Below, piece after piece: positions 1-32,000 of a stretch of DNA of 32,000 bases. How positions within the stretch are numbered: position 1 is the stretch's first letter; every line of letters starts with the position of its first letter. The translations under genes and the position numbers were made by a program. The DNA is from Polynucleobacter necessarius (GTDB taxonomy: Bacteria; Pseudomonadota; Gammaproteobacteria; Burkholderiales; Burkholderiaceae). The notes beneath the pieces are model-generated. The model was not told where the DNA came from and did not search any database. It saw nothing but the letters and a program-made list of their open reading frames with translations. Where the stretch lies: positions 907,207-939,206 of the forward strand of contig NZ_LT606950.1 in NCBI RefSeq assembly GCF_900095195.1, read 5' to 3'.

Positions 1-575
1 TTGAATACCGGCCATCTCTTTGAATAATTCACCAGACATATGCAATGAAGTGCCAACGCCCGAAGAACCAAATGTCAATTGATTGGGCTTGGCTTTGGCT
101 AACTCAATCAACTCATGTATGTTGGTAACACCCAATTGTTTATTCACAATCAGAACATTCGGCGTGCTCGCCAAAAAACTAATGGGCGTGAAATCCTCAA
201 TCGGATTAAATGACATCTTTTCATAGATGGCGCCATTAATCGCATGAATACCTACCGTACCAGTCAAGAGCATAAACCACCATCAGGGTCACTCTTGGCA
301 ACGAGCTCAGCGCCAATATTACCGCCATATCCCGGTTTATTTTCAACCAGGACTGGCATACCTAAGGCCTGTTGCCAATTCTCCGCCAATACGCAAGCCA
401 ATATGTCAGGGGCTCCGCCAGGAGTAAACGTCACAATAATGCGAATGGCTTGCTTGGGCCACGTTGCATTTTTCGAAGCGTTGAGATTGGAAACTGTCTG
501 GGCCTGAACCACTAGGGTGATCATCGCCAACAGAATCGATACGCAGAGGTTACGTGCTACCTTCAACAATTGCAT
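1..575 (-). pseudogene. Bug/TctC-family tripartite tricarboxylate transporter substrate-binding protein, frameshifted; C-terminal end runs off the window
   Basis: Minus ORF 264..575 has a signal peptide and a Bug N-terminus (IRIIVTFTPGGAPD, VENKPGYGGNIG, AKSDPDG). Homology continues in another frame from ~283 down to base 1 (FMLLTGTVGIHAINGAIYEKMSFNPIEDF...QLTFGSSGVGTSLHMSGELFKEMAGIQ). One extra base near 279-285 breaks the frame. Confidence 0.8.
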
Positions 576-617
576 GACCCACAGCCCAAATGGATGGACT
601 AGCTTAAGAATAAGAAA

Positions 618-1190
618 TTAAAAACCAAAACGAGAGCGAAGCCACAACCATCCATCGTAACGCACAGGATCATCGGCACATGCTCCAATGCCACACCCTA
701 GTAGGGTGGAAATTAAATTACCAAACACGATCAAGATAAAAAGAATGATCAAAGTATTCGCAAACCATGAGCGAGAGCGCACATCTCGGTTGGGCAGCAT
801 CAATAAGATGGCGAACCCAATTAACAAACCAAGATAACCAATAAATGCCCAAGTGTAAAAATGCAACTCTAAAAAGGTTGCACCAAACCCTTTATCACCA
901 GACAAGATATGAATGAATATCTGGCGTAGTGAGGCCATCATCCCTACTAAGCCGCCAAAAATGCCCCAGCCATAATGGGCAGAATGTGCGCCACAACGAA
1001 TGTTCAGTACCAGCGCGAAACCAATAATGACAAAGCCAATACGTTGCATGAGGCAGAGTGGGCATGGCAACTCACCAAAATAGAGTTGATCGATAAAGGC
1101 GTAAGACAAAGTCCCAACAACCGCCAATAGAGCCAGTTGATTGCCTAGTGATGCAAGAGATGGAAACGAGGCTCTTTTCACGATGATCAC
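618..1190 (-). CDS. DsbB-family disulfide bond formation protein (membrane thiol oxidoreductase)
   Basis: Uninterrupted 190-aa multi-pass membrane ORF with a GTG start. It has CxxC followed by QR after the first TM helix (ELPCPLCLMQR), as in DsbB/BdbC. A second Cys pair lies near the C-terminus (GCGIGAC). Confidence 0.7.
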   Translation of the reverse strand: MIIVKRASFPSLASLGNQLALLAVVGTLSYAFIDQLYFGELPCPLCLMQRIGFVIIGFALVLNIRCGAHSAHYGWGIFGGLVGMMASLRQIFIHILSGDKGFGATFLELHFYTWAFIGYLGLLIGFAILLMLPNRDVRSRSWFANTLIILFILIVFGNLISTLLGCGIGACADDPVRYDGWLWLRSRFGF

Positions 1191-1345
1191 AAATTAATGT
1201 GGAGATGACTCGTTGCATGGAAGCGGAACCACAGCATCAGAATAAATACCGTAATCGCCAACATGCATAGACCTGCCAAACGTTTTTCAAACCAGACCAA
1301 GACAAGTCCGATAAGCGCTGTCAGAAAAGGCAGGAACATATACAT
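1187..1345 (-). CDS. Small two-TM membrane protein (52 aa), apparently translationally coupled to the DsbB-family gene
   Basis: Below the 60-aa track cutoff. My translation is MYMFLPFLTALIGLVLVWFEKRLAGLCMLAITVFILMLWFRFHATSHLHINL*. Its TGA (1187..1189) overlaps the downstream GTG start (1188..1190) as GTGA. No clear Shine-Dalgarno, so coding status is inferred. Confidence 0.45.
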   Translation of the reverse strand: MYMFLPFLTALIGLVLVWFEKRLAGLCMLAITVFILMLWFRFHATSHLHINL

Positions 1346-1437
1346 ACTGGAATTCTAGCGCAGGATGGTTTCGAGTCTTTGAAATCACTGCCTTAGGAAT
1401 GCTTAACCCTACCGATGGCTTTGTTTAGAATGCCTAC

Positions 1438-2217
1438 ATGACCACTCGATCCACCCCGCCCTGCCTCGACCTAACGCTAGAAGGCGCTATTGCAAGGATT
1501 ACCTTCAATAACCCTGCAGCACGCAATGCAATGACTTGGCCTATGTATGAAGAGCTCAAGTCTATATGCGATGCATTAGCCAAAAACGATTCTGTTCGCG
1601 TCGCCATTTTCCGAGGTGCTGGTGATAAGGCATTTGTCTCGGGGAGTGATATTGAGCAATTTGTAAATTTGCAAAAAGATGAAGCGTACGAAGTGGCTGT
1701 GGATGATATCTTTCACTCACTACACACCTACCCATACCCACTATTGCTCTGATTGAAGATTTAGCGGTTGGAAGCGGTTTATTGATTGCCACCGCATGCG
1801 ACTTTCGTATTTCCACACCCGACGCACGCTTTGGTATTCCAGTAGCGCGCACTTTGGGAAATTGTTTATCACCAAGCAATCTGGCTTGGATTAGTGCGCA
1901 CCTAGGTATACCCTATGGTGAAAAAAATGTTGCTCACAAGCGAATTGATCAAAGCGCCAGAACTCCTTGCTACTGGCTACCTATATCAAACCGCTCCAGC
2001 TCCTAAAATCAATGCCGGTGCCGACGCCCTAGCAAATAAGCTCGCAGTCCTAGCCCCCATTACTCAAAAGGCTGGCAAAATTGCTCTAGCACGCTTACTG
2101 GAGAGCAATCTTCCTGACTGCACAGACCTGATGAGGGAGACCTATAACAGTCAGGACTTCAAAGAAGGTGTCAATGCCTTTTTAGAAGGTCGCCCACCCA
2201 AGTGGGAAGGCAAGTAA
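1438..2217 (+). pseudogene. Enoyl-CoA hydratase/isomerase (crotonase fold), at least two frameshifts
   Basis: Three ORF pieces read as one crotonase protein: ARITFNNPAARNAMT..AIFRGAGDKAFVSGSDI, then PTIALIEDLAVGSGLLIATACDFRISTPDARFGIPVA, then MLLTSELIKAPELLATGYL..YNSQDFKEGVNAFLEGRPPKWEGK. The frame changes near ~1737 and ~1912-1920. Confidence 0.85.
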
Positions 2218-2237
2218 TTTGATGCGGCTTTTAATGG

Positions 2238-2926: not shown

Positions 2927-3200
2927 TTATTTTTTATCAGTATGGCGCACTTTTAATAGCAGGATACTCAAGGCCAATGCAAACGTGAGTGTATTCTAAG
3001 ATCAGCGGCCATTTTTCAATAATGAGTCCGTATATTAGCCATAGACCCACCCCGAGGGTAAAGAGTGAATACATTCCCAAGGAAATGCCCGAGAGGTCTC
3101 GAGTACGCCATGACTGGATTGCCTGCGGCAAGAAAGAAACCGTCGTTAAGAATGCCGCGCAATAACCGATGACATCAATGGAAGATTGCGCGAGTGCCAT
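2927..3200 (-). pseudogene. SemiSWEET / PQ-loop small sugar transporter, single-base insertion destroys the third TM helix
   Basis: ORF 2937..3200 has the PQ motif (VSFLPQAIQSWRTR) and two TM helices, then ends in non-membrane sequence (LILEYTHVCIGLEYPAIKSAPY). Removing one base at ~2996 restores LILNTLTFALALSILLLKVRHTDKK* (stop 2927..2929), a normal third helix. Confidence 0.75.
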
Positions 3201-3224: not shown

Positions 3225-3621
3225 TTATTGTTTTTTATTGGCACCAGCGCGACGGGCTTCTACATCTTTATTGATAGCCGCGATCGTTTTTGCATCGGGT
3301 GATTTCCAATTACCGCCCGAGTTCTTCACCATATAGACCAAGGCATCGGAGAAGCCCTCAATGCTGAGATTGGGATTACCGCCTTTCGGAGGCACCCCGC
3401 GCACACCAAAGTATGCGTGCGCCGTGAGTGTGACTTGAACCTTCTGCAATCAGCGCGCCCATTTTACTTTGTCGCCAAACTTGGGGGCATTCAATACACC
3501 CGCACCATGACAATTGGCGCAGACTTGTGTAGGTATTTTCGCCAGACTGAGCAAGAGGCGCGCCCGAGAGCAGGACAGTAGTCGCGACAACCTTCAGCGA
3601 GGATACAAATGTTGATTTCAT
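3225..3621 (-). pseudogene. Class I (c5-like) monohaem cytochrome c, frameshift plus nonsense codon
   Basis: A signal peptide (MKSTFVSSLKVVATTVLLSGAPLAQS) lies in one frame. The haem motif CANCH (3507..3521) followed by GAGVLNAPKFGDKVKWAR lies in another. An in-frame TGA at 3450..3452 precedes ..TLTAHAYFGVRGVPPKGGNPNLS..ALVYMV. Confidence 0.8.
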
Positions 3622-3706
3622 TAGGAGATTCTTTCTAATGACAGATTTGTACATTTGTTATTAGATAAGAATGTAGCCCAATTTTCGAAAATATGCTCTT
3701 GAGAAT

Positions 3707-5620
3707 CTACCCTAGACCAAAAAAGATTGCTAAATGGTAGGTGATGAACGAGGCGATATAGGCTAGCCCGAATAGATAGCTCAGCATAATAACTGGGATC
3801 TTCCAGCCACCCGTTTCCCGTTTAACTGCTGCGATTGTGGATAGACACTGCGGCGCAAAGACAAACCAGGCCAACAACGAGAGCGCTGTGGCCAAAGACC
3901 ATCCCGTTGAAATCAGAGGAATTAAAGCTTCCGCAGCATCGGCACTAGAACTGGATAAGGCATACACCGTTGCTAAGGAACTCACCACTACTTCACGCGC
4001 CGCCATTCCAGGCACTAACGCAATACTAATTTGCCAACTAAACCCAATTGGCTCAAAGATGTGTGCAAGCGCTTGCCCCAACATACCAGCAAAACTGTAC
4101 TGAATAGCCGATTGTGTTGCGCCCTCGGGAGGCAACGGAAAACTCGATAGCGCCCAGAGCGCTACCGTCATTAGCAGAATGATTCCACCAACACGACGCA
4201 AGAAAATTTCTGCGCGCTGCCACAAACTGATCGCTAAATTACCGAGACGCGGCAAGTGATAACTGGGCAACTCCATCATGAGCGCATTCATTCGAAATTG
4301 CTCACTCGTAAAACGCTTAAGGACCCACGCTACCGCCATCGCACCCAAAATCCCTGCGAGATAAAGCAAGAAAAGCACCAACCCCTGCAAATCAATTCCC
4401 GCCCACAACTTTTGCTCAGGAATGAACGCCGAAATTAGCAATGCATATACTGGCAATCGCGCCGAGCAGGTCATCATGGGTGCAATCAAGATAGTCACGA
4501 GTCGATCTCGAGCATTGGAAATGCTTCTCGTGGCCATAATTCCGGGGATGGCGCAGGCAAAGCTTGATAACAAGGGAATAAAAGATCGACCCGATAGGCC
4601 CACGGAGCCCATCACGCGATCTAATAAATAAGCAGCTCTGGGCAGATAACCGGACTCCTCCAAGAGCAGGATAAAGAAAAACAGAATCAAGATCTGCGGC
4701 AAGAAGATTACTACCCCACCGAGGCCTGCCAAAATGCCGTTGATGAATAGACTGCGTAGCCAATTCTCTGGCAAGATCTGCCCGATTTGTGCACCGAGAT
4801 ACTCAACGGTGGCCTTGATGAATTCCATGGGCACGGTAGCCCAACTAAAGACCGCCTGGAAAATACAAAACAGCAACGCTATCAAAATCAGTGGGCCGAT
4901 GATGGGATGGAGTAATACAGCATCCAAGCGATCGCTCAATTGATCAGGAATAATTTGATCAAGACCTAAATTTTGCAAAATGCGTTGCACTTGCACGTTA
5001 TCGGATTCAGCATGGGCAATATGGGATGCCACATTTTCCAAAGTAGCGTCGCTACTGCCCGTGCGAAGGTGGTGAAGATTTCGCCAGTCCAATGCGGATA
5101 AAAACTGCTTAATGTTATCGGCACCATTTGCCTGAATGCCAATGCTGGTCACCACCGGTAAGCCCAACTCAGTCGAGAGTGCAGCAGTATCAATCTGCAA
5201 ACCCTGACGCTTGGCGACATCCAGCATATTGAGCACCACGACACAAGGCAAACCTAAGCGCTTGGCCGCCAGGACTAAGCGAAGATTACGACGCAGGTTC
5301 ATGGCACTCAGAATGCACAGGACTAAATCGGGACGCTTCTCGCCTTCGGCTTTACCTAATAAAACATTACAAGTAACGCGCTCATCGAGCGATCTGGGAT
5401 ACAGACTATAGGCACCTGGCAAATCTAAGATGCGAATATTTTTTCCGGAATCCAGAGAAAGTCGCCCCTCTTTGCGTTCAACGGTCACACCAGAATAGTT
5501 GGCGACTTTTTGACGACTACCCGTCAATAAATTGAAGAGCGCTGTTTTTCCGCAATTAGGGTTGCCCAATAGAGCAACAATCGGCTCACTCGGAAAAAAA
5601 TGAACCGTAGACTCAGACAT
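3707..5620 (-). CDS. feoB: Ferrous iron transporter FeoB
   Basis: Uninterrupted ORF with G-domain motifs GNPNCGKTALFN (G1), DLPG (G3) and NMLD (G4), followed by a large polytopic membrane domain. A TTG at 5639..5641 opens the ORF. The ATG at 5618..5620 overlaps the feoA stop (ATGTCTGA) and is the likelier start. Confidence 0.95.
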   Translation of the reverse strand: MSESTVHFFPSEPIVALLGNPNCGKTALFNLLTGSRQKVANYSGVTVERKEGRLSLDSGKNIRILDLPGAYSLYPRSLDERVTCNVLLGKAEGEKRPDLVLCILSAMNLRRNLRLVLAAKRLGLPCVVVLNMLDVAKRQGLQIDTAALSTELGLPVVTSIGIQANGADNIKQFLSALDWRNLHHLRTGSSDATLENVASHIAHAESDNVQVQRILQNLGLDQIIPDQLSDRLDAVLLHPIIGPLILIALLFCIFQAVFSWATVPMEFIKATVEYLGAQIGQILPENWLRSLFINGILAGLGGVVIFLPQILILFFFILLLEESGYLPRAAYLLDRVMGSVGLSGRSFIPLLSSFACAIPGIMATRSISNARDRLVTILIAPMMTCSARLPVYALLISAFIPEQKLWAGIDLQGLVLFLLYLAGILGAMAVAWVLKRFTSEQFRMNALMMELPSYHLPRLGNLAISLWQRAEIFLRRVGGIILLMTVALWALSSFPLPPEGATQSAIQYSFAGMLGQALAHIFEPIGFSWQISIALVPGMAAREVVVSSLATVYALSSSSADAAEALIPLISTGWSLATALSLLAWFVFAPQCLSTIAAVKRETGGWKIPVIMLSYLFGLAYIASFITYHLAIFFGLG

Positions 5621-5891
5621 GAGCAATACGTTCAACAGCAATCATACGCGCCTCGGATTCACGCAAGGCAAAGGTAGAGGCGCCAACGCGAACAAGGTAG
5701 GGACCTCTCTTCAGCAAACCTTTGCGAAGTAATGTGACCTGCTCTCCTGGCAAAAACCCAATGTCCTCCAATTGCCCCTTAATTTGCGGAGCACCTTTGG
5801 GGGCGTTTACCTCGCTTACGCGATATAGACTACCAAGGTCAACTTGATCTAGATGCATTGAATACAGAGAGCGATTGTGTTTTTGGGCCAT
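5613..5891 (-). CDS. feoA: Ferrous iron transport protein FeoA
   Basis: Small SH3-like protein immediately upstream of and overlapping feoB (..LEDIGFLPGEQVTLLRKG..VRVGASTFALRESEA). The ATG at 5889..5891 is embedded in a TATAAT, so the real start may be the internal ATG at 5856..5858 (MHLDQVDLG..). Confidence 0.85.
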   Translation of the reverse strand: MAQKHNRSLYSMHLDQVDLGSLYRVSEVNAPKGAPQIKGQLEDIGFLPGEQVTLLRKGLLKRGPYLVRVGASTFALRESEARMIAVERIAHV

Positions 5892-5921: not shown

Positions 5922-6038
5922 ATGAAAATCCACTCTATTTGACTGAATAATGCCGTTTTTTACCCATTTCAACTTTGATCCAAAACAAAAAGAATGGAAT
6001 TCATGCATACTAAATCCAATCTCTTAATAAGATTTGAT

Positions 6039-6662
6039 ATGTACTTACCAAAACACTTTGCCGTTGATGATCCCGCAATCCTAGCGCAGCTGATTGCGGA
6101 ATATCCTTTGGCCACTCTGGTTGGAAATTTAGACAATCATCTGGAGGTCAATCACCTCCCATTAATGTTAAGCGCGGATCAATCCAAACTTTATGGTCAC
6201 ATTGCCAGAGTGAATCCCCTGGTCAAAATTGCCGCCAGCAATAACACGAATGTGACCGCAATTTTTCATGGGCCAGATGCGTATGTAACCCCTGCCTGGT
6301 ATCCATCCAAAAAAGAAACGGGCAAAGTGGTTCCTATATGGAACTATGCGGTCGTTCATGCTCAGGGCACACTCAAGTTAATTGAAGATTCCCAATGGCT
6401 AAGAAGTCATGTAGCGCAAATGACAAATATTCATGAGCCCACCAATCAATCCAACTGGAAACTCGATGATGCTCCCGAAGATTATGCTCAGATGATGCTT
6501 AGAGCCATCGTTGGCATTGAGATTGATGTCCAGAATTTGGTCGGCAAGTTCAAGCTCAGCCAAAACCGCCCACCAGAGGACTATGCCGCTGTCGTTGATG
6601 TCCTGGACAAATCCCCTGCAGAGGTATTGCAGGAAATGCGCAAACTCATGAAACCTCACTAA
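6039..6662 (+). CDS. paiB: PaiB-family FMN-binding negative transcriptional regulator
   Basis: Intact ORF. The family-typical start MYLPKHFAVDDPAILAQLIAEYPLATLV is at 6039, while the ORF opens earlier at 5994. The C-terminus reads ..GKFKLSQNRPPEDY. Confidence 0.75.
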   Translation: MYLPKHFAVDDPAILAQLIAEYPLATLVGNLDNHLEVNHLPLMLSADQSKLYGHIARVNPLVKIAASNNTNVTAIFHGPDAYVTPAWYPSKKETGKVVPIWNYAVVHAQGTLKLIEDSQWLRSHVAQMTNIHEPTNQSNWKLDDAPEDYAQMMLRAIVGIEIDVQNLVGKFKLSQNRPPEDYAAVVDVLDKSPAEVLQEMRKLMKPH

Positions 6663-7411
6663 GGGGTGGTGTAGCCGTATTTTGTAAAAGGGATTTTGCT
6701 TGCGTGGTCTGCATAAACTGATATAGCGCCTGCGCATCAAGTGATGCACCTTTTTTAAGACCATGCGCTGTTTAATGGGTGCATGCAGTGCGCGTTCACC
6801 AATACATAACGCGTGTCTTTAGCCACTTCAGTCGCCTTAGCGAGCGATAGCGCAGTGAACCCAATGTCCGCAGCCCCAGTGACCACATACGTAGTGGCTA
6901 CCCCGATGTTGTCACCATAGACAATTTTGTCTTTTGCAAGATCCCACAAACCCTCCGCCTTGAGATACTCAACAGCAGCTTTGCCATAGGGGGCTAAGTC
7001 AGGCTTAGCAATGGCAATCCGCCTTGCTTTTTGAATAGCAGTAGCGATTTCAGTCTTATTTGCCGTCAACGGCAATCCATCATTGGCCTTCGCAATAAGG
7101 ACCAACTTGCCAATGGCATAAACACTCCCCTCATTTAATGTCTTGCCATTTTTATAAAGCTCTAAAGGAAAGCGCTCATCAGCAGCAATAAACAACTGAA
7201 ATGGCGCGCCATTTTGTATTTGAGCGGCAAAATTACCGGATGAGCCATACACCACACGCAATTCGCTCTTGTGATTTGCCTTAAATTCTTGGGCAATTTC
7301 GCTAAATGCATCCTTCATGTTCGCAGCAACTGCTACCGTTACAGTCTGTGCAACAGCCGACTGTAGAATCAAAAACAATGCTGCGATAAGGATGATTAAA
7401 CGAACATGCAT
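6646..7411 (-). pseudogene. ModA-like molybdate-binding periplasmic protein, C-terminal frameshifts
   Basis: It has a signal peptide plus ModA-type motifs (VAVAANMKDAF, VYGSSGNFAAQIQNGAPFQLFIAADE). After ..YVLVNAH the homology moves to a second frame (PIKQRMVLKK) and then a third (GASLDAQALYQFMQTTQAKSLLQN..). The second shift is at an A6/T6 run (6751..6756). The 3' end coordinate is reconstructed and approximate. Confidence 0.7.
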
Positions 7412-7441
7412 AGTCGATAAGTTGTTGTGTTCATGGATTGC

Positions 7442-7945
7442 TCAAAGCCATTCTTTGACTTGTCGATTTAGACTAACAGCTTTATATCTTGGCGTATCAC
7501 TAGAGTAACCGCGAATTTTGCGAATTAACTTCGAGGCCTCCGATTGTGACACCATGGTTTTATGCATAGCAATAAAGAAAATCTCATCTTTCAACGGAAC
7601 AAATCCCAAGCCATTTTCTAAAGCAATATTTTTAACGCCGATACCAACATCGGCCTTACCAGCCAAAATGGCATTCGCCACCGCGGAGTGGGTAAATTCT
7701 TCTTGTAAATAACTGTTGATATCCAGAGGATCAATTCCGTCATTCATTAATAAATGATCGAGTAACAATCGAGTACCAGAACCAATCTGCCGATTAATAA
7801 AGCGAACTTTTGGATTCAGCAAATCCTCGATCGCGCGAATGTTCAAGAGGTTGCTTTTTTTACAATCAAACCCTGGGTGCGCTTCATGACAGGGTAAATC
7901 TGGATCTCGTTTTTGGATAGGCGCTGATGAATCGCTCATTAGCAC
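7442..7945 (-). pseudogene. C-terminal PBP-like domain of a molybdate/tungstate-type HTH regulator; DNA-binding N-terminal half missing
   Basis: The 167-aa ORF carries only the ligand-binding half (..VRFINRQIGSGTRLLLDHLL..EEFTHSAVANAILAGKADVGIGVKNIALENGLGFVPLKDEIFFIAM). No HTH segment is present. The ORF start overlaps the 5' end of the divergent tupA remnant. Confidence 0.5.
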
Positions 7946-8699
7946 ACGCCCAAGAAAAAAGCATTGTGGTCTCTTCCACCACCTCTACTGAGCAATCCGG
8001 TTTATTTGGATTCATCTTGCCCATCTTCAAAATGAAAACTGGCATTGATATAAAAGTGGTTGCCGTTGGTACTGGCCAAGCGTTGGACATTGGACGTCGC
8101 GGTGATGCTGATGTTGTCTTTGTGCACGACAAACCCGCAGAGGAATTGTTTGTACAAGAAGGCTATTCCACCAAACGCAATGAAGTGATGTACAACGACT
8201 TTGTCTTAATTGGTCCAAAGTCTGATCCTGCAAAAGTCAATGGTGGCAAAGATATTCAAGTAGCGTTTCAAAAAATTGCTGCGGCGCAGGCTCTATTCGT
8301 CTCGCGTGGCGATAAGGGTGGCACCCATGCGGCCGAGTTGTGCTATTGGAAAGGCGCTGGAATTGCAGTCTCGCCCAATCAAGCTTGGTATAAAGAAACG
8401 GGCTCTGGCATGGGCCCTGCCCTGAATACCGTTTCCGCGATGAATGGCTATATTCTGGCCGACCGCGCTACTTGGCTTAGCTTTAAGAATCGAGGCGATC
8501 TCGCTATTCTGGTTCAGGGCGATCCCAAGTTATTCAATCAATATGGCGTGATGTTGGTAAATCCTGCCAAGTACCCCAATGTCAAAAAAGCGGAAGGTCA
8601 ACCTTTATTGATTGGCTCATCTCTAAAAATGGTCAGGACGTTATAGCAAGCTATCAAATTGGTGGTGAGCAACTGTTCTTCCCGAATGCCAAGAAATAA
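7927..8699 (+). pseudogene. tupA: Tungstate-binding protein TupA, signal peptide lost and C-terminal frameshift
   Basis: It has the TupA hallmark TTSTEQSGL plus GTGQALDIGRRGDADVVFVHD, FVLIGPKSDP and FVSRGDKGGTH. An in-frame TAG at 7918..7920 lies directly upstream, so there is no signal peptide. After ..KKAEGQ the homology shifts frame to FIDWLISKNGQDVIASYQIGGEQLFFPNAKK* (stop 8697..8699). Confidence 0.8.
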
Positions 8700-8701
8700 A
8701 C

Positions 8702-9555: not shown

Positions 9556-9563
9556 GAGAAATC

Positions 9564-9789
9564 ATGGAACTCAAAGTCAAGCTCAGCGCCCGCAACACCC
9601 TCAATGGCAAAGTTGTTGAACACAAGATGGGTCAAACCACGTCACACGTAAAGATAGATATTGGTGGCGGCCAAATTGTGACTGCCTCCATTACAAATGA
9701 GGCGGTTGATGAGCTCAACCTAAAAGTGGGCGATCAAGCTTGGGCAAGTGATCAAGGCGTCCGATGTCATGGTTGCCAAGAGCGCTTAA
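9564..9789 (+). pseudogene. mop: Mop/TOBE molbindin (molybdenum-pterin-binding protein), 1-nt insertion near the 3' end
   Basis: AGGAGA Shine-Dalgarno. The sequence LSARNTLNGKVVEHKMGQTTSHVKIDIGGGQIVTASITNEAVDELNLKVGDQAWA is a TOBE fold. The expected end (V)IKASDVMVAKSA* lies in the +1 frame. The span 9564..9789 is 226 nt, not a multiple of 3. Confidence 0.8.
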
Positions 9790-13257: not shown

Positions 13258-13294
13258 TTCAGTTGATCGATAAGCTTCTTCTGAGGTTGAGTCC

Positions 13295-20477: not shown

Positions 20478-20585
20478 TTTTCAAGCTCCTATACGTTAGG
20501 GGTTTAACAAACAGTTCTATACCTACTCTATACCGAAATTGGAGACCTGCCAATTCCCACGAATTTAAGGCATTAAAATGACAAT

Positions 20586-23180: not shown

Positions 23181-23693
23181 CTACTCAAATCGATCAATGA
23201 TCTCAGAGGAGATATTGAGTTTTTTCATGTGCAACTTGGTATATGCCTGACGAAAGTTCTTTGTCATCGATATCATGACCGAAGCAGTCCAGGAAAATGC
23301 AAACATGCCGGAGAAAGCGATGATGACTGCTAACATTTTCCAGCCGTCTGGAAGAATATCTTCCATAAAACCCATCGCGGTGTAAGTGCTACCACTAAAT
23401 AGAATGCATTGACCCAACCCCGGGATCAACTTGAATCCATAGAGCGCAAATCCCCAAATCAGAATCTCAGCAACATGCGTTAGGAATAGATACAGCACGC
23501 TGATATAAAAACAGATGGCAACACTAGAGTATTTTTTCTCGGCCAAATACAAAAAGGTATTCACTTCATAACGCTTCGCAATCTGCAGCAGCACTATCCC
23601 ATGAAAAATCATGACGACGAGGAGCATAAAACCGCCCAGTAAATAGCCTGGTAGGTCTATTGCAGTAGCTAAATTCATGTGCGCGAAACTCAT
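23181..23693 (-). CDS. Ion-channel-like membrane protein (two-TM pore-type, degenerate selectivity filter)
   Basis: Intact ORF with TM helices flanking a pore-loop-like segment, ILFSGSTYTAMGFMEDILP (compare F.FS..T.TTvGfGDi.P of K+ channel family proteins). The ORF opens at 23777, but the ATGs at 23693 or 23678 are likelier starts. Confidence 0.5.
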   Translation of the reverse strand: MSFAHMNLATAIDLPGYLLGGFMLLVVMIFHGIVLLQIAKRYEVNTFLYLAEKKYSSVAICFYISVLYLFLTHVAEILIWGFALYGFKLIPGLGQCILFSGSTYTAMGFMEDILPDGWKMLAVIIAFSGMFAFSWTASVMISMTKNFRQAYTKLHMKKLNISSEIIDRFE

Positions 23694-23740: not shown

Positions 23741-24599
23741 TTAGGCCAATTGATACCAATTTTGGATCACATTCCAAGCTTCTTTAGCGGTATCCACAAA
23801 ATGAATAGCCCGCATATCTTCCTGGTCAATGACTCCAAACTCGACCATTTTCCTGAAGTTCACCATCGCATTCCAAAATTCTTTACCCAGCAAGATTACC
23901 GGGATCTGAGCAACCTTTTTCGTTTGGATCAGTGTCAAGACTTCAAATAATTCATCAAACGATCCAAATTCACCAGGGTAGGCAACAGTTGCGCGAGCGC
24001 GCAACATGAAATGCATCTTTCGCAACGCAAAGTAATGAAATCGAAAACTCAACCCTGGACTGATATAGGCATTAGGATGCTGCTCTCTTGGAAGACTGAT
24101 GTTAAAACCAATCGTCTCGTGTCCCTGCTTCAAAGGCACCACGATTGGCGGCCTCCATAATTCCTGGTCCACCACCCGTACATATATGTAACTTATTTGA
24201 AGACTGTTGTTGAGTTGCATTGTATTGTGCAACGAGGCGCCCAAATTCTCGAGCCGACTCATAGTACTCGCTATGCAAGAGAGCTTGTTTAGCGGTCTCT
24301 TTTTCCGCAGACGTCTTTGCCTCCTGCTGCAATTGTTCAGCACGCTCACGACTGACAAAGCGAGTAGACCAAAATACGGTAATCGTATGATCGATGCCCC
24401 GCTCTTTTAGCAAAATCTCAGGCTTCAGTAATTCAAGCTCAAACCGAATGCCAATCGTCTCTCGGCGAGATAGAAAGGCTTCATCGTCAAAAGCAAACTT
24501 ATAGGAATCAACCGATTCCTCTTCGGCCAACTGATTCTTATGAAGATCCAAGAACTCCATAATAGTCTGGGCATTGTTAATGGGAAGTTTTGGACTCAT
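23741..24599 (-). pseudogene. LOG/TIGR00730-family nucleotide 5'-monophosphate nucleosidase (YgdH/PpnN-like), frameshifted
   Basis: ORF 24102..24599 ends ..ICTGGGPGIMEAANRGAFEAG. At ~24110 the homology shifts to the frame of ORF 23741..24358: ..ETIGFNISLPREQHPNAYISP..FHYFALRKMHF..ATVAYPGEFGSFDELFEVLTLIQT. Confidence 0.8.
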
Positions 24600-24765: not shown

Positions 24766-24954
24766 ATGAGTAACCGTTCAATCCTCATTATGGTACTAGT
24801 GTTAGTTGGTGCCACTGCCTACTTACTTTTAAAAGGCGACGGCAATATTGATATGGGCGGTGAAAAGCATGGCGCTGAAGCAACTCATGTTGAAGAAGCA
24901 AAGAAAGATGCACCAGCCGCTCCCGCTGCCCCAGCAGCAGATACGAAGAAATAA
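24766..24954 (+). CDS. Small single-pass membrane protein with a Pro/Ala-rich, Lys-terminated tail
   Basis: The start region is AAGGAAAATCC-ATG. The protein reads MSNRSILIMVLVLVGATAYLLLKG..HVEEAKKDAPAAPAAPAADTKK*. A strong terminator follows. Confidence 0.55.
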   Translation: MSNRSILIMVLVLVGATAYLLLKGDGNIDMGGEKHGAEATHVEEAKKDAPAAPAAPAADTKK

Positions 24955-25008: not shown

Positions 25009-25291
25009 ATGAAAAAATTACTTTTTTCTCTTCTCCTATTAAGGATTTCTGAACTTTGCATCAGTCAAACCAACAGTACCCCCAAACGACCCATGAATAC
25101 AATCGCTCCTGCCATGATCTCGTCATTTGCTCCAACCGGTACATTACGCGTTGGCATTAACTTGGGCAATCCCATCTTAGCCAATCAAAATGCAAGCACT
25201 GGTATTTGTCGCCATTGATCCAGTGCGTGGCGCGGACATTAGCTACACTCCTCCCTACATTCAAATTGAAGGGGCTAAAGTAGCCGAGTAA
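25009..25291 (+). pseudogene. Remnant of a family-3 (amino-acid type) ABC substrate-binding protein with internal and 3' deletions
   Basis: A signal peptide plus APTGTLRVGINLGNPILANQNASTG joins directly, and out of frame, to (F)VAIDPVRGADISYTPPYIQIEGAKVAE*. About 60 codons between the two segments are missing, as is the whole C-terminal lobe. Confidence 0.6.
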
Positions 25292-25312
25292 TGTAATTCG
25301 CGCAGTGACCAA

Positions 25313-26442
25313 TCAACACTCATATGTGTGCAAGCGTTCTGGGATGATCACATTACTCCAACCTAGATCATCCCGAATGCATTCCGCCAAAACCGATGCT
25401 GCCTCAGGCTCTCCATGAACGACAAAGACGGTTTTGGGTGGCGATTTAAATCCCCTTAACCAGTCCAATAAGCCTGCTTGGTCGGCGTGAGCAGATAACC
25501 CACCAATCGTATGAATGGATGCTCTCACTTGGACATCCTCTCCAAATAATCGAACTTTTTGAACCCTATCCACTAACCTTCTACCAAGACTTCCGTAGGC
25601 CTGGAATCCAGTAATCACGATTACATTTTGAGATCGCGGTAGATTGTTTGCGAGGTGATGCGCAATGCGGCCTGCATCACACATGCCACTTGCGGAAATA
25701 ATAATCGCCATGCCTTTAATTTTATTAAGGGCTTTGGATTCCTCCACATCAGCAATGAAACGCAGATCTACTGCTGATGGGTTATTTTTATACCAAGTAA
25801 AAGTTGCCTGCGATTGTTGATCCAACTGTGTAAAGTAACGATCTGTTAATTGAGTAGCTGCTGTAGCCATCGGGGAATCCACCCAAACCGCTAGATGCGG
25901 TAAACGACCCCTTCTCACTAAATCCATCAACAAAAATAAGATCTCTTGCGTGCGACCAACCGCAAAAGCGGGTATGACAACATACCCTGCGCTTTCATCG
26001 TACTGCTAATGACCTGCACAAGCTCATCCTCGGTATCACTTAAGGTGCGGTGTAAACGATCGCCATAGGTAGACTCGATCAGCACTACATCCGCCCGATC
26101 AATCATCTCCGGATCTGGCATCAGAACCTTTCCCTTCATGCCAAGATCTCCAGAAAAGACATATCGCTTACGCTGAGCCCCATCCTCCTGAACAGTGAGC
26201 TCTGCAATAGCCGACCCCAAAACATGGCCAGCATTGTGAAACTCTAGCTCAATGCTTGAAGCAATCTCAATCGGTTTTCGATACTCCAATGGCTCAAACT
26301 GAGTCAGCGCATTTTCTACCTCTTGTTTTGAATACAAGGCGACCGACATCTCACCATGCCATTTTCCCAATTTCGCTTTACGCTCAGCATACTCTCTCTT
26401 AAAATCCACTTTATCGATAGGATTTAGAGCGATACTGTTCAC
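25313..26442 (-). pseudogene. MBL-fold beta-CASP ribonuclease-type hydrolase, 5'-truncated and frameshifted
   Basis: Downstream motifs are present (FHNAGHVLGSA, SGDLG, IESTYGDRLH, ..SASGMCDAGRI.., GGLSAHADQAGL, VFVVHGE). The N-terminal ~100+ codons with the HxHxDH motif are absent. A frame change occurs at ~25935-25990 (..KAQG to NVVIPAFAVGRTQEILFLLMD). Confidence 0.8.
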
Positions 26443-27327
26443 ATGACATCCGTACCCGCAAAACTAAACACCATTGACCTGCTTCATCGACTCAAGCGTG
26501 CGCCTGCAGAACACAAGGGCAACGCTGGTAAGGCCTTACTGATTGGCGGGGCACCAGGCATGGCAGGTGCGTTGCTTTTGGCTGGTAAAGCATGCTTACA
26601 TCTCGGTGCTGGCTGGACTATCCTCGAAATGTTCGATCCTGCATCTGCAAGAGCACAGGATGCACAACCAGAACTGATGATTCGACTGGCAAGTGATCAA
26701 GCGCATACTATCTTGGCTCAGACCCAACCTGATGTCATAGCGATCGGTCCGGGTCTTGGAAATTCCCCACTGGCAATCGAGTGGCTAAAGGCTTGCTTAA
26801 CTTATCCGCACATTCCACTCATCTTAGATGCCGATGCTTTAAATCTGATTGCAGATTCTGATAAATTACTCAATACATTACGAGAACGCAATGCGCAATT
26901 TCCAAATAAAAGCGTATGTACTCCGCACCCAGGTGAAGCTGCCAAACTGTTAAAAATATCTGCTGAAAAAATCCAGGGCGATCGTTTGCATGCCTTACAG
27001 CAACTCATCACCCTCACCCAATCGATTGGGATCTTAAAGGGTCAGAATACCGTCATTGCAAGCCCTAATCATTCTGCAGTTCAATGTGAGGCTGGTAATC
27101 CCGGTATGGGCACAGGCGGAATGGGTGATGTCCTCACAGGCACGATCACAGCCATTGCCGCTCAGGGAGTGCGTCACCAATTACCTCTCTGGGATGCCAG
27201 CAGTATCGCAGTTGAGCTCCATGCCACTGCTGCCGACAGCTTAGTCAGTAAAGGGGTTGGTCCAATTGGGCTAACCCCTTCTGAAACCATTATGGAGATG
27301 CGAGGCATCCTCAATAAACTGTTATAA
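26443..27327 (+). CDS. nnrD: ADP/ATP-dependent NAD(P)H-hydrate dehydratase (stand-alone YjeF C-terminal type)
   Basis: Intact 294-aa ORF with motifs HKGNAGKALLIGGAPGMAGA, IGPGLGNS, LDADALN, TPHPGEAAKL and GNPGMGTGGMGDVLTG. Confidence 0.85.
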   Translation: MTSVPAKLNTIDLLHRLKRAPAEHKGNAGKALLIGGAPGMAGALLLAGKACLHLGAGWTILEMFDPASARAQDAQPELMIRLASDQAHTILAQTQPDVIAIGPGLGNSPLAIEWLKACLTYPHIPLILDADALNLIADSDKLLNTLRERNAQFPNKSVCTPHPGEAAKLLKISAEKIQGDRLHALQQLITLTQSIGILKGQNTVIASPNHSAVQCEAGNPGMGTGGMGDVLTGTITAIAAQGVRHQLPLWDASSIAVELHATAADSLVSKGVGPIGLTPSETIMEMRGILNKLL

Positions 27328-27332
27328 ACAGT

Positions 27333-28332
27333 ATGCAATCTCCAAACGCAGCTCACCACCGACATTACCTCTATGGCATTTTGATGTCCGGTATTGGCTC
27401 GATGCTGTTTTCTGGCAAAGCGGTATTGGGAAGTTGGCCTTTGGTTACGGCGCAAATGCCGAGACGTTATTAGCCTTGCGGATGCTAATGGCACTTCCGA
27501 TGTTTTGGACTGTCTACTGGTGGGAGTCTCGACGAAAGCCTATGAGCCCCATTAGCTGGTCAGAACGAGGAAAGATTTTCTTTCTCGGCTTTCTGGGATA
27601 TTTTTTATCGAGCTATATCGATTTTCTAGGGCTGCAATATATTTCGGTTGGTCTTGAGCGCATCGTTCTCTATCTAACACCAACCATTGTGTTGCTGATC
27701 TCCTACTTTGCTCCGAATAAATCCATTTCCAGAATGCAGTGGTATGCCTTAGTGGCTGGATACCTGGGGGTATTGGTGGTTTTCATTCAAGATGCCAGCT
27801 CTACTGGTATCCATGCCTGGCTTGGGATGCTCTTGGTCTTTGGTAGTGCGGTAGCTATGCTTTGTATATGATTGGCTCCGGAGAAATGGTCAGACACATC
27901 GGTAGCGTACGGCTTGTCGTTTTAGCAAGTTCGGCCTCTGCCGTACTGAGCTTGATGCAATCCTCTCTATACAAGACTAGTGCCATTTTTGAACAGAGCG
28001 CACAAGCCTACCTATTGAGTCTTCTCAATGCGAGTCTTTGTGCTGCTATTCCAATGCTTCTCATTATGATTGCCATCAATCGCATTGGGTCGCCACTTGT
28101 TGCACAGGCGGGCATACTGGGCCCTGTCTCAACAATCTTTTTGGGCTAGTTTATTTTGTCTGAGCCAATTACCGCTATGCAAATTGCAGGAATGCTTTTG
28201 GTAATGGCTGCTATGTGGCTGTTGGTGCGCAACGACGCTCCAAGAAAAAAGTCATCTGACATAAAAAATCAGATGACTTGGAAGAGGTCGAACCTCTCAA
28301 TTGAGGGGTCTATCAGAACGGGGAATTACTGA
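27333..28332 (+). pseudogene. EamA/DMT-family transporter, two frameshifts plus an in-frame TAG
   Basis: MQSPNAAHHRHYLYGILMSGIGSMLFSGKAV shifts at ~27425 to ..FGYGANAETLLALRMLMALPMFW..GLQYISVGLERIVLYLTPT... A second shift at ~27860 leads to YALYMIGSGEMV..INRIGSPLVAQAGILGPVSTIFLG*FILSEPITAMQIAG.., with the TAG at 28147..28149. The 3' limit is uncertain. Confidence 0.8.
28244..28278 (-). terminator. Rho-independent terminator of the Lys-rich protein gene, embedded in the DMT pseudogene tail
   Basis: A 10-bp stem, AGTCATCTGA (28250..28259) paired with TCAGATGACT (28269..28278), has a 9-nt loop. On the minus strand it is followed by TTTTTT (A6 at 28244..28249 on plus). Confidence 0.75.
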
Positions 28333-28568
28333 GCAGCATCTGCTGCTTTTACTTTTTTCTTCGATTTCTTTTCTACTTTCTTTTCTTTCTTTGCTTGCTT
28401 CTTCGATTTTTTGGCTGCGGCTTTATCAGCAGGCGCAGCAGCAGGCTCTGAAGTAGCAGCAGGTGCTGGCGCTGGAGCAGGATCAGCAGCCAAGACAGAA
28501 ATTGGTGATAAGCCAATGGTTGCAGAAATTAGAGCTGCTAAGCTAAAACGAGCGATACGCGAAGTCAT
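28326..28568 (-). CDS. Secreted low-complexity protein: signal peptide, Pro/Ala-rich segment, Lys-rich histone-H1-tail-like C-terminus
   Basis: GGAGA Shine-Dalgarno 6 nt upstream of the ATG at 28566..28568. The protein reads MTSRIARFSLAALISATIGLSPISVLAADPAPAPAPAATSEPAAAPADKAAAKKSKKQAKKEKKVEKKSKKKVKAADAAQ*. The ORF track opens earlier, at 28610. Confidence 0.6.
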   Translation of the reverse strand: MTSRIARFSLAALISATIGLSPISVLAADPAPAPAPAATSEPAAAPADKAAAKKSKKQAKKEKKVEKKSKKKVKAADAAQ

Positions 28569-28649
28569 GCCATTCTCCAAAAGGTTTATTGATAATTTGA
28601 TAATACTCAAAAAAATAATAAAAATGCCTTATTCCACTTTTTGGGCAAT

Positions 28650-28694: not shown

Positions 28695-28815
28695 TTATGC
28701 GGGCTGCGCTTCTGCCTCGGTAATCTTTTCCAACGCTGCCGCCAAGTGTCCAACTGTGCGGTCTACATGACCTAATTTTTCCAAACCAAAGAGACCAATT
28801 TTCTGCCTGAATTTT
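28695..28815 (-). pseudogene. Isolated C-terminal remnant (~40 codons) of an unidentified gene, possibly a class-V aminotransferase tail
   Basis: The minus-strand reading is ..KKFRQKIGLFGLEKLGHVDRTVGHLAAALEKITEAEAQPA* with no upstream coding body, because oxyR ends at 28823. The rIGlmG...vd..l.ALe..l pattern recalls AGXT/SgaA-type C-termini. This is a weak assignment. Confidence 0.3.
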
Positions 28816-28822
28816 TTTGGAT

Positions 28823-29743
28823 TTACTTTACTTTCTTCAGGCTCATCCCAAACTGATCACGAATACATTGCGATAGCGCTGTAAACTCTGTGGCATGCGC
28901 AGTGGATGACCGGGCTACGAGCGCAATGATTCTTTTGGGCGCTGGTGCAGACAATGCTTTTGCAACTAAGTCACTGCTGTTTAGCAAACTACTCTTCACT
29001 GCCATTTCTGGTAGCAACGCAATCCCAAAGCCTGACTCGACCATCTGCAGCAGGGTTAGCAAACTGGTAGCCTCTACCCCATCATCTTTCCGAATATCTG
29101 CCTTTTTGCAAGCCTGTAAGCTGTGCTCCCGAAGGCAGTGGCCCTCTTCCAATAGCAATAGCCTCTCTGCCATTTTGGCTGGCAGAGTCACTTCCTTACC
29201 TTTGAGGGCAGGGTCTCCCTCGCGCGCCACCAACCAAAAAGGATCATCAAACAATTCCTCCACTAGGAGTCCGCTGACGTCATAAGGCAAGGCGATGAGT
29301 GCATAATCCAATTTATGCTCTGCAAGTCTTGCCAGTAAATTGGCAGTAAGGTCTTCCCGTAAGGTGATTTTGAGATTCGGAAACCGTTTGCGGGTTTCTG
29401 GCAAAACACTAGGCAGCAAAAATGGTGCAATCGTCGGAATAACTCCTAGGCGAATTGTTGTCGTCATAGGCTTGCCTGAGATACCTGCATATTCCACCAA
29501 ATCTTCCGATGCCGCCAAAATCGTTTTAGCACGCTCCAATACTTCAAATCCTGCCGGTGTAATCGATACATTTTGCCGATCACGCTCGACCAGCTGGATC
29601 CCGAGACCCTCCTCCAACTCCTTAAGTCCGGCACTCAGAGTGGATTGACCAACAAAACAGGTCTCTGCAGCTCTGGTGAAGTTCAGTTCTTTCGCTAGAG
29701 CAACGAGATAGGTCAGTTGCTTTAAAGACGGTAAATATGCCAT
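28823..29743 (-). CDS. oxyR: LysR-family hydrogen-peroxide sensor OxyR
   Basis: Intact 306-aa ORF with an N-terminal wHTH (LKQLTYLVALAKELNFTRAAETCFVGQSTLSAGLKELE). The redox-switch region LLLLEEGHCLREHSLQACKK has the two Cys spaced as in E. coli C199/C208. Confidence 0.85.
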   Translation of the reverse strand: MAYLPSLKQLTYLVALAKELNFTRAAETCFVGQSTLSAGLKELEEGLGIQLVERDRQNVSITPAGFEVLERAKTILAASEDLVEYAGISGKPMTTTIRLGVIPTIAPFLLPSVLPETRKRFPNLKITLREDLTANLLARLAEHKLDYALIALPYDVSGLLVEELFDDPFWLVAREGDPALKGKEVTLPAKMAERLLLLEEGHCLREHSLQACKKADIRKDDGVEATSLLTLLQMVESGFGIALLPEMAVKSSLLNSSDLVAKALSAPAPKRIIALVARSSTAHATEFTALSQCIRDQFGMSLKKVK

Positions 29744-29872
29744 CTCACATCCTTATCGAGAATTTCAATCAATACTACCATTATTATTGAGATTTACGAT
29801 ACTGATCTATCCAGTGTTGGCACTAGAAAATATATTTGAACTCGATGTTCAGTCTTCCCCACGAGGCTTACC

Positions 29873-31053
29873 TTGAATCAAACCCCATCACCAGCGACTT
29901 CTTCGATCGTCATCATTGGCAGCGGATTGGCAGGCTACACCGTCATTCGCGAGATTCGTAAACTCAATAAAGAAATTCCGATTACGCTGGTTACCAAAGA
30001 GCCTGGTTACTTTTATTCCAAACCGATGCTCTCGACTGCACTAGCAAGCAAAAAAGATGCGTCTCAGTTAATCACGACACCAGCCGATGGCATGGCATCT
30101 CAATTAGCATTCATATTCTTGCTGAAACTGAAGTACACGCCATAGATACAAACAAACACGTCATTCAAACTAACAAAGGCGATCTTGCCTATAGCAAACT
30201 GGTCTTGGCTCTAGGCGCCGATCAAATTCAGCTATCGTTATTGGGAAATGCCGCAAGCGAGGCACTCACTGTCAATGATCTTGAAGATTACGCAAGGTTT
30301 CGTAGCGCAATAAGTGGCAAAAAGAAAATTGCTATTTTGGGTGCAGGTTTAATTAGCTGCGAGTTTGCAAATGATCTAATCCTAGGTGGCTTTGAAGTAG
30401 ATGTTATTGACATGGCGCCCCATGCTCTTGGGCGACTGATCCCAGAAACGGCGGCCGTCGCACTGCAAAATAAGCTGAGCGCTCTGGGTGCATGCTGGCA
30501 CTTCAACACTACCTTCAGTCAATAAATCGGGTAAACGACCAACTCCATATCACCCTAGCGAATGGATCGGTATTGAATACTGATGTGGCACTCTCTGCCG
30601 TTGGACTAAAACCCAGACTTGAGCTCGCTAAAGCAGCAGGCATTGACACTAATATACAGGTCAACCGCAAACTCCAAACGAATATCCCTCACATTTATTT
30701 ATGCGATTGGTGATTGCGCTGAAGTAGATGGACTCGTGCCTCCATATGTAATGCCAATCATGCAAGCAGCGCGAGCATTAGCCGCGACCTTGACGGGGCA
30801 AGCTACACCGCTAACGTATCCTGCAATGCCAGTGATGATGAAAACCCCGGCATTTGCCACTATTGTTTCTCCACCAGCGAAAGACGCAAGTGGTCAATGG
30901 AAAATCAATGCGATGGATAATGGTGTAGAGGCTCGGCTTGAAACAGCCGATGGCCAGCTTTTAGGTTTTGTATTAATGGGCACTGCAACAGCCCAGCGTG
31001 CAGCCCTCACCAAGGAACTACCAGTCAATACTGGCATAAACGAAATAACGTAA
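29873..31053 (+). pseudogene. Rubredoxin-reductase-like FAD/NAD(P)-dependent pyridine nucleotide-disulfide oxidoreductase, at least three frameshifts
   Basis: Four ORF pieces lie in different frames: SIVIIGSGLAGYT..YSKPMLS; ..LVLALGADQ..KKIAILGAGLISCEFANDL..GFEVDVID; ..LHITLANGSVLNTDVALSAVGLKPR; and ..IYAIGDCAEVDGLV..YVMPIMQAARALA..LLGFVLMGTA. It has a TTG start and is divergent from oxyR. Confidence 0.85.
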
Positions 31054-31054
31054 T

Positions 31055-31083
31055 AAAAAAGGCCCGCAATGCGGGCCTTTTTT
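31055..31083. terminator. Bidirectional rho-independent terminator
   Basis: aaaaaaGGCCCGCaatGCGGGCCtttttt: a 7-bp GC stem flanked by an A6 and a T6 run, between convergent genes. Confidence 0.85.
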
Positions 31084-31104
31084 ATTCGTTAAGACTTGAT
31101 CGGC

Positions 31105-31698
31105 TCAAGAAACAATCACAAACCAAGTAGTGTTGTGAGACTGAGCAACCATCAAGAACAACATTGGCACAGATAACAATGTATTGATGCGGGAAGTCAA
31201 CATCGCAACACGAGCAGATTTCGCTTTGGTATCCGCATCTACAGTCACAATACCGAGAGCGCGTTTTTGGTTAGGCCAGATGATGAACCAAACGTTAAAC
31301 GCCATTACCAATGCGATCCACATACCTAAACCAACCGCGCGGAATGGCGCTTGCAATGTAAATGCTTGATGCGCGTAACCATTCAATACCGCCAAAATCA
31401 AACCGCTCAATACTGTAAAGAGTGCTGCGTAACGGAACCAGAACAATGCTGTTGGAGCGATTACTTTACCGATAGCAGGCTTTTGCTCATCTGGAATCTT
31501 TGGCATGGAAGGAATTTGCACAAAGTTGAAGTACCACAGCAAACCAATCCACATCACACCGAACATCACGTGCAACCAACGGAATACGAATGGCAATTCA
31601 GCAGAGCTAAAGTTACCGCCTAGTGCAAAAATAATCAAAACGAGCAGTACAAAACCTGCCAATACTGTGCGTCCTAAAGAGGTCAAAATTGAAGCCAT
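31105..31698 (-). CDS. Polytopic membrane protein of unknown function (RWLHV..WIG motif; PuuD N-terminal / HemJ-like superfamily guess)
   Basis: Intact 197-aa ORF with 4-5 TM helices. The motif FRWLHVMFGVMWIGLLWYFNFVQ resembles the haem-binding-type helix of urate hydroxylase PuuD/HemJ-like membrane proteins as I recall them. Low certainty. Confidence 0.4.
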   Translation of the reverse strand: MASILTSLGRTVLAGFVLLVLIIFALGGNFSSAELPFVFRWLHVMFGVMWIGLLWYFNFVQIPSMPKIPDEQKPAIGKVIAPTALFWFRYAALFTVLSGLILAVLNGYAHQAFTLQAPFRAVGLGMWIALVMAFNVWFIIWPNQKRALGIVTVDADTKAKSARVAMLTSRINTLLSVPMLFLMVAQSHNTTWFVIVS

Positions 31699-31865
31699 GA
31701 AAGGTTCTCCTTATATATAAGTGCCTGTAAATATAAACGATTCTGGCAATTTTGTTTGAACATCCCAAATTTTGGCTTTCTCATGAAAAAATGCTAACTC
31801 GAGTAGTGACTTCGCCCTATTTGGGGTGCAAAATAAGCGAACAAATTATTGATTACGTGAGACAA

Positions 31866-32000
31866 ATGATGCCCTCATCCACTTTTTTAAATATATTGGT
31901 AGGTCTTAGCTTGATGATTCTGGAATCTTCTTCAGTTGCTCATGCGCAAGAATTTCCGCCCAAGAAAACGATCACGATCGTAATTGGCTTTGCACCCGGT
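31866..32000 (+). CDS. Bug/TctC-family substrate-binding protein, 5' end only (runs off the window)
   Basis: MMPSSTFLNILVGLSLMILESSSVAHAQEFPPKKTITIVIGFAPG: a signal peptide plus the Bug N-terminal I.I(V)..F(A)PGG motif. Intactness beyond the window is unknown. Confidence 0.7.
   Translation, partial: MMPSSTFLNILVGLSLMILESSSVAHAQEFPPKKTITIVIGFAPG

Follow-up and report, generated by a model that had tools for sequence, protein, structure and literature searches.

Gene content and integrity of the window

We analysed a stretch of 32,000 nucleotides of Polynucleobacter necessarius DNA (contig NZ_LT606950.1, positions 907,207 to 939,206), in the following called the window, in which about half of the genes are broken. 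Using a frameshift-aware alignment 46 loci were recognised, with 25 of them broken and 20 intact; the remaining one extends beyond the right window end. Broken loci make up 54% of all loci and 55% of the bases, while 37% of the bases lie in intact loci. This is in agreement with a preliminary description made from the letters alone, which had counted about 25 inactivated loci among about 46. A strict count of broken loci amounts to 20 to 25, since in five loci the lesions are confined to the C-terminal region (PBP_like_2a, TOBE, PQ-loop, AhpC/TSA and the ModA-like solute-binding protein, SBP). According to the Pfam names the dead genes belong to transporters, peripheral catabolism and redox accessories. 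The genes feoAB, selD, oxyR, trHbO and nnrD as well as a DsbB-family gene are all intact. Both observations had been part of the preliminary description.

As references we used 13 loci of free-living Polynucleobacter, i.e. four genomes at selD, two at oxyR, four metagenome contigs at nnrD and three loci at dsbB. For each locus of the window the best free-living ortholog was aligned to the window DNA by dynamic programming, in which frameshifts were allowed and in-frame stops were recorded. Gene-family names correspond to Pfam matches. Stop counts taken from raw tblastn high-scoring segment pairs were discarded as too high (5 in the enoyl-CoA hydratase gene and 5 in the rubredoxin reductase gene), because the frameshift-aware alignment resolved them into frameshift pairs. 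Compared with the four free-living genomes that cover the selD region (L001-L004) the window is colinear across 3.2-25.5 kb at 67-80% nucleotide identity (blastn), save for an inverted segment. On the protein level the identity to free-living orthologs is 56-95%. A simple open reading frame (ORF) caller found long ORFs over approximately 91% of the four free-living selD-region loci, whereas the same caller returned short and fragmentary ORFs for the window. The GC content of the window (46.2%) falls within the range of the free-living loci (44.1-47.1%), such that there is no shift towards AT relative to them. Scans of the window for tRNAs and against Rfam gave no match.

The point lesions comprise 37 frameshifts and 10 in-frame stops. 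Net -1 frameshifts (27) outnumber net +1 frameshifts (10), and the indel density is about 1.3 per kb of coding sequence. Larger lesions are two 5' deletions, two short gene remnants and one inversion of 2.2 kb that splits a rhodanese gene; the sizes of deletions lie between a few codons and about 9 kb. When deletions and the inversion are counted, 15 of the broken loci carry at least two lesions, and most broken genes have 2 to 4 lesions of differing kinds. A single substitution separates most of the 10 stops from the sense codon of the reference. Half of them (positions 2546, 11628, 12695, 13766 and 18895) arose from TGG (Trp) by G-to-A transitions to TAG or TGA. These are in line with a mutation bias from GC to AT, though the overall GC content has not dropped. 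Every broken gene has orthologs in the free-living loci whose ORFs run through without interruption and agree in length; their number ranges from 1 to 7. The genes are therefore not normally split ones.

Genes between positions 1 and 16,118

At the left end a gene of the TctC/Bug family of solute-binding proteins (TctC (a), about 1-563, minus strand; Pfam TctC) runs off the window. It is a pseudogene with one frameshift at about position 278 of the window, as seen against a reference of 338 amino acids (aa) from locus L164. The same strand carries the intact genes dsbB (621-1181, 187 aa, 88% identity over the full length) and a small DUF5993 protein (1190-1345, 52 aa). An enoyl-CoA hydratase pseudogene (1429-2214, plus strand; Pfam ECH_1) has two frameshifts at 1723 and 1911. 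Three broken genes on the minus strand follow: an FAA-hydrolase pseudogene (2241-2905) with a frameshift at 2596, a TAG at 2546 in place of TGG and a deletion of 9 aa; a borderline PQ-loop pseudogene (2939-3200) with a frameshift at aa 68 of 96; and a cytochrome c pseudogene (Cytochrome_CBB3, 3231-3621) with three frameshifts. They adjoin the intact iron uptake genes feoB (3710-5620, minus strand, 636 codons, 90% identity) and feoA (5616-5858, minus strand, 84% identity), both matching over the full length.

The PaiB-like regulator of the FMN_bind_2 family (5994-6662, plus strand) is intact. Its relatives and the annotated product comprise 207 aa, and the true start therefore probably lies at about 6039. 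The gene is located between feoA and the dead ModA-like gene at a site that is empty in the four free-living genomes L001-L004. Homologs with 80-86% identity are common elsewhere in Polynucleobacter, such that the location of the gene varies.

All five genes of a molybdate/tungstate-type uptake cluster (6662-9786) are hit. The ModA-like gene (SBP_bac_11, 6662-7411, minus strand) is a borderline case with three frameshifts from aa 206 of 251 onwards. The PBP_like/HTH regulator (7445-7935, minus strand) is a pseudogene which has lost aa 1-176 and carries one frameshift. Two PBP_like_2 binding proteins are encoded on the plus strand, the first (7921-8696) being a borderline case with a frameshift at aa 260 of 292 and the second (8729-9552) a pseudogene with one frameshift and a TAA at 9364. 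Also borderline is the TOBE-domain gene (9564-9786, plus strand) with a frameshift at aa 61 of 74.

The next three genes are intact; they encode a secreted protein of 193 aa on the minus strand (9866-10447) and, on the plus strand, a GNAT acetyltransferase (10606-11028) and a 4HBT thioesterase (11049-11474). They are followed, again on the plus strand, by a CDO_I-like cupin pseudogene (11502-12066) with a TGA at 11628 and two frameshifts at 11658 and 11819, and by a transglutaminase-like pseudogene (12153-13254) with two frameshifts (12348, 12914) and TAG codons at 12695 and 12743. For both genes the lesions listed in the preliminary description were recovered exactly. An AhpC/TSA-type redoxin gene (13217-13834, plus strand) has a borderline truncation by a TAG at 13766 (aa 187 of 209, from TGG). 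It is followed by the intact selD (13875-14945, plus strand), which at 95% identity is the most conserved gene of the window. The gene for an mmsB-like 3-hydroxyisobutyrate dehydrogenase (14966-15835, minus strand) is a pseudogene, for which at least four frameshifts had been proposed. That it was hit several times held, and the count needs a small correction: three frameshifts are clear and are accompanied by a TGA at 15437. Around this TGA about 9 residues align poorly, and an additional frameshift pair may be present there, which would give five frameshifts. A Cupin_2 gene of 89 aa (15855-16118, minus strand) is intact and divergent (56% identity).

Genes between positions 16,176 and 32,000

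The DUF1330 gene (16176-16400, plus strand) has lost its 3' end (about 21 aa) at the left breakpoint of the inversion. Reading a minus-strand ORF at 16118-16420 as a 105-aa gene with four stops was rejected, since Pfam assigns the region to DUF1330 on the plus strand. The inverted segment contains, both on the minus strand, the N-terminal half of the rhodanese gene (16383-17294) and TctC (b) (about 17322-18265), a pseudogene with a frameshift at 17593. The C-terminal half of the rhodanese gene, which as a whole encodes four domains and 529 aa, lies at 18658-19323 on the plus strand and carries a TGA at 18895. Further along the plus strand there are an intact hypothetical gene of about 100 aa (19377-19667) and a DUF2389 pseudogene (19680-19899) with a frameshift at aa 16 of 73. 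Three intact genes occupy 19956-21941: on the minus strand a phasin-like gene and TctC (c) (20979-21941), and between these two, on the plus strand, the truncated haemoglobin gene trHbO (20586-20972).

On the minus strand follow an HI0933-like flavoprotein pseudogene (21966-23177) with four frameshifts, an intact gene for a membrane protein of 170 aa with a weak Ion_trans_2 match (23184-23693) and a LOG/Lysine_decarbox-family pseudogene (23744-24599) with one frameshift at 24125. A small plus-strand gene of about 62 aa (24766-24954) is apparently intact (95% identity). Of an SBP_bac_3 gene only a remnant is left (25093-25307, plus strand), which covers about the first 73 of 245 aa and contains a frameshift and a TAG. 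The MBL-fold/beta-CASP pseudogene (25316-26394, minus strand) lacks aa 1-111 and has a frameshift at 25983. Together with the PBP_like/HTH regulator it accounts for the 5' deletions that the preliminary description had mentioned.

The Carb_kinase gene nnrD (26443-27327, plus strand) is intact and of full length, with 74% identity to its best relatives compared to 81-87% for the flanking genes, dead ones included. It may be under relaxed constraint and unbroken so far. The adjoining EamA transporter (27333-28301, plus strand) is a pseudogene with three frameshifts and a TAG at 28147. A small Lys-rich gene of about 84 aa (28326-28580, minus strand) is probably intact. Within its ORF a 21-nt unit occurs three times in tandem (28348-28412), and the size spread of the orthologs (83 to 104 aa) suggests a repeat-length polymorphism. 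A class-V aminotransferase gene is reduced to its last approximately 48 of 382 aa (28698-28841, minus strand). Next to it lies the intact oxyR (28823-29743, minus strand), followed by a rubredoxin reductase pseudogene (29873-31023, plus strand) with three frameshifts, an intact gene for a Urate_ox_N-family membrane protein (31108-31698, minus strand, 92% identity) and the start of TctC (d) (31857-32000, plus strand), which runs off the window. The TctC/Bug family has four paralogs within the 32 kb: two broken ones, an intact one and the one truncated by the window end. Of the TctC genes of the free-living loci at least three others are deleted, such that a large share of the losses concerns this family.

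Inversion, gene losses and mobile DNA

The inversion that had been noticed previously could be located to 16382-18628 (2.2 kb). The segment is inverted with respect to all four free-living genomes that cover it. The rearrangement interrupts the 529-aa rhodanese gene near aa 305 and removes the 3' end from the DUF1330 gene. Its junctions lie at about 16378-16382 and at 18628-18658, with about 170 bp of ancestral sequence gone at the right junction. A search at the junctions for inverted repeats and for remains of insertion sequences (IS) or other mobile elements found none.

Apart from broken genes, at least 18 genes of the syntenic free-living loci are wholly absent from the window. A DEAD-box helicase gene, found 3' of the cupin gene in four of four free-living loci, is deleted. 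The same holds for the rubredoxin and rubrerythrin genes, which adjoin the rubredoxin reductase and oxyR genes in free-living loci and have been replaced by a 129 bp gap (29744-29872). Between feoB and dsbB the free-living loci span 8 kb compared to 2.5 kb in the window, with 5-6 genes lost. From oxyR to the aminotransferase remnant about 10 free-living genes are missing.

The window contains no mobile DNA. With orthologs assigned to 91.5% of its length, its largest gap without assignment measures 392 bp, which leaves no space for an IS element or a phage gene. No repeat longer than 34 nt exists within the window. The Pfam hits listed for those reference loci that carry annotation include no transposase family. 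The earlier statement that IS, transposase and phage genes are absent was thus borne out, and the IS proliferation seen in Sodalis, Serratia symbiotica or Shigella is absent from the window.

Source, age and lineage pattern of the decay

The species could be verified on the protein level. OxyR of the window is 100% identical over the full length to the P. necessarius protein WP_114662645.1, and another P. necessarius RefSeq protein, from the same contig as WP_114662645.1, matches the PaiB-like protein at 100% identity. The assignment guessed from the decay pattern was therefore correct. Among the free-living Polynucleobacter the best relatives of SelD are strain 86C-FISCH (95%) and P. yangtzensis (92%). 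The source contig has a length of 1,550,368 bp and is shorter than the free-living Polynucleobacter contigs compared, which reach 1.97-2.22 Mb. P. necessarius lives only inside the cytoplasm of Euplotes as an obligate endosymbiont (PMC11253213), a habitat that for the DNA studied here follows from the species name and the literature.

From the alignments we calculated the ratio of divergence at first and second codon positions to divergence at third positions (p12/p3). It is 0.24 for broken and 0.22 for intact genes (Mann-Whitney p = 0.59). The equal ratios indicate that most of the divergence predates the loss of selection and that inactivation is recent. A greater divergence of broken than of intact genes was tested for and not seen; divergence can therefore not be used as independent proof of inactivation.

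In two further P. necessarius genomes, LT615228 (1.83 Mb) and LT606949 (1.70 Mb), the lesions of the oxyR neighbourhood differ from those of the window. For example, the rubredoxin reductase gene has one frameshift in LT615228, is intact in LT606949 and has three frameshifts in the window. Decay is therefore largely lineage-specific and at differing stages. In the analysed locus of LT606949 (1300-7200) a CO-dehydrogenase-like cluster (CoxG/FAD/Fer2/MoCoBD) is broken up into many ORFs, with four frameshifts in the large subunit. At 3400-4600 of the LT615228 locus an acyl-CoA dehydrogenase is found in two pieces.

Taken together, the window is very likely a chromosome piece of the obligate Euplotes endosymbiont P. 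necessarius at an early stage of reductive genome evolution. Colinear free-living loci with intact orthologs, the recency indicated by the p12/p3 ratios and the absence of mobile DNA agree with the mutational erosion in a recently host-restricted bacterium that had been suggested in the preliminary description.

Life within a host cell would relax selection on genes for uptake, peripheral catabolism and accessory redox functions, as expected from established views on endosymbionts. In small, bottlenecked and non-recombining populations purifying selection would be too weak, such that drift could fix disabling mutations. Genes that are dead would then gather further hits until the general deletional bias of bacteria clears their remains. 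Genes that are still needed would be kept, among them presumably feoAB for iron uptake, oxyR and trHbO for oxidative-stress control, nnrD for metabolite repair, dsbB for disulfide formation and selD. No IS bloom is seen, probably because the streamlined free-living ancestors had essentially no IS elements.

Alternative explanations

A number of points weigh against the interpretation as early genome reduction. Drift, relaxed selection and the cause of the absence of IS elements are inferred. Whether the lesions are artefacts was judged indirectly from the assembled sequence, such that single indels rest on the assembly. The five genes with C-terminal lesions might still be functional. In simulations the lesions cluster only moderately relative to random placement (P of about 0.009 for lesion-free codons and 0.04 in a chi-square test). 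No free-living sister with more than 95% nucleotide identity was found, and at a p3 of about 0.54 synonymous sites are saturated relative to the references. Finally, the broken share of 54% of loci is about three times the approximately 18% of pseudogenes given for the whole genome of P. necessarius STIR1 in PMC5632650, which cites Boscaro 2013. The excess may reflect either a region of accessory genes or a more decayed strain.

In principle the genome could be a normal one, with frameshifts and stops that stem from errors of sequencing, basecalling or assembly. Artefactual indels would leave the functional codon-position pattern of the broken genes just as well, and the spread of the indels over the genes, at the density found, departs only moderately from random. 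By itself the clustering test would leave an error-prone assembly possible, but the remaining lines of evidence exclude it. Errors of basecalling can explain neither the ten nonsense substitutions nor the inversion, the two remnants, the two 5' deletions and the deletion of at least 18 whole genes. Large genes such as feoB, selD, oxyR, TctC (c) and nnrD are free of lesions. The uptake cluster is hit in every gene. Similar decay is present in the two further P. necessarius assemblies and is also reported in the literature (PMC5632650). Homopolymers are not enriched at the frameshifts, the mean longest run per 17-nt context being 3.05 compared to 2.93 at random; homopolymer slippage and homopolymer-type sequencing errors were therefore rejected as frameshift source. 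Errors as the origin of the lesions are thus extremely unlikely. The probability is vanishingly small that the interrupted frames belong to normal split or recoded functional genes, i.e. to genes with programmed frameshifting or with TGA codons read as selenocysteine. An intact selD makes selenocysteine decoding conceivable, and three of the in-frame stops are TGA. The reference residues at these codons are, however, W, T and W, with Cys at none, such that the selenocysteine reading was rejected. Neither selA and selB nor a SECIS-type element were found in the window, where Rfam also gave no match. In addition, between 1 and 7 free-living genomes have the respective ortholog as one continuous ORF, and the mixture of lesion kinds within most broken genes does not fit recoding.

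Inactivation may also have been adaptive, with selection rather than drift under relaxed constraint removing costly or harmful functions. The losses are functionally coherent to a degree that would suit this idea, as they comprise transporters, peripheral catabolism and one entire uptake cluster. We nevertheless consider it very unlikely. With more than half of the bases being remains of dead genes there is no sign of selection for compactness; multiple hits per gene are the product of neutral decay following the first hit; and in other symbiont lineages different genes are hit. Furthermore, PMC11253213, which cites Boscaro 2017, attributes the reduction chiefly to drift, based on published dN/dS comparisons. 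Two other readings are prompted by the bare observations of selD conservation and of local lesion density: a selenium-dependent function (selenouridine tRNA modification or a selenium cofactor) could still be required and be host-relevant, or the region could be a decay hotspot at about three times the STIR1 average. Either of them appears unlikely. selD has the lowest divergence at first and second codon positions in the window (0.055), and both of its neighbour genes are dead. The partners selA, selB, selU and yqeB/C do not occur within the 32-kb window. At least four representatives of free-living Polynucleobacter species were among the 80 loci listed in the selD scan.

Comparison with known systems

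P. necessarius serves as a textbook-style model of how the genome of an endosymbiont begins to shrink, since it has free-living relatives that are very close to it. The window shows this reduction gene by gene and adds no new principle. Its practical value is a locus-by-locus lesion map, which could aid the re-annotation of the stretch.

Sodalis glossinidius, Serratia symbiotica and Mycobacterium leprae are recently host-restricted bacteria with massive pseudogenization. Serratia symbiotica is also described as such a case in PMC4285135. The window resembles these organisms in its high pseudogene fraction, the multiple hits per gene, the deletional bias and the loss of transporters and peripheral metabolism. 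In contrast to Sodalis and Serratia symbiotica it exhibits neither IS proliferation nor IS-mediated rearrangement. It also differs from recently host-restricted bacteria in that no AT shift relative to the free-living relatives (46.2% vs 44-47% GC) has occurred. The absence of IS proliferation is a known peculiarity of P. necessarius according to PMC5632650.

A close likeness is that to STIR1 (Boscaro et al. 2013, PNAS). It belongs to the same named species with the same lifestyle and has a similar size (1.56 vs 1.55 Mb, i.e. 1,560 kb as stated in PMC4285135 compared to 1,550,368 bp of the source contig) and GC content (about 45-46%; PMC5632650 and PMC4285135). Given the difference in length, the window probably stems from a strain other than STIR1. 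It likewise shows pseudogenization by point lesions without mobile elements, next to close free-living relatives with intact orthologs. PMC5632650, which cites Boscaro 2013, indicates an absence of mobile elements together with the pseudogene share given above. In PMC11253213, which cites Boscaro 2013 and 2017, P. necessarius is characterised by more pseudogenes, independent origins of the symbionts and a drift-driven reduction. Since the phenomenon has been published for P. necessarius and the genome is public, the finding is already known.

The oxyR neighbourhood provides a direct comparison with two other members of the species. LT615228 and LT606949, which we take to be genomes belonging to Boscaro et al., share with the window the gene neighbourhood of oxyR and the same kinds of lesions, namely frameshifts, stops and deletions. 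In this region LT615228 is mostly intact, LT606949 has many broken genes of which the remains are kept, and in the window about 9 kb have been deleted cleanly.

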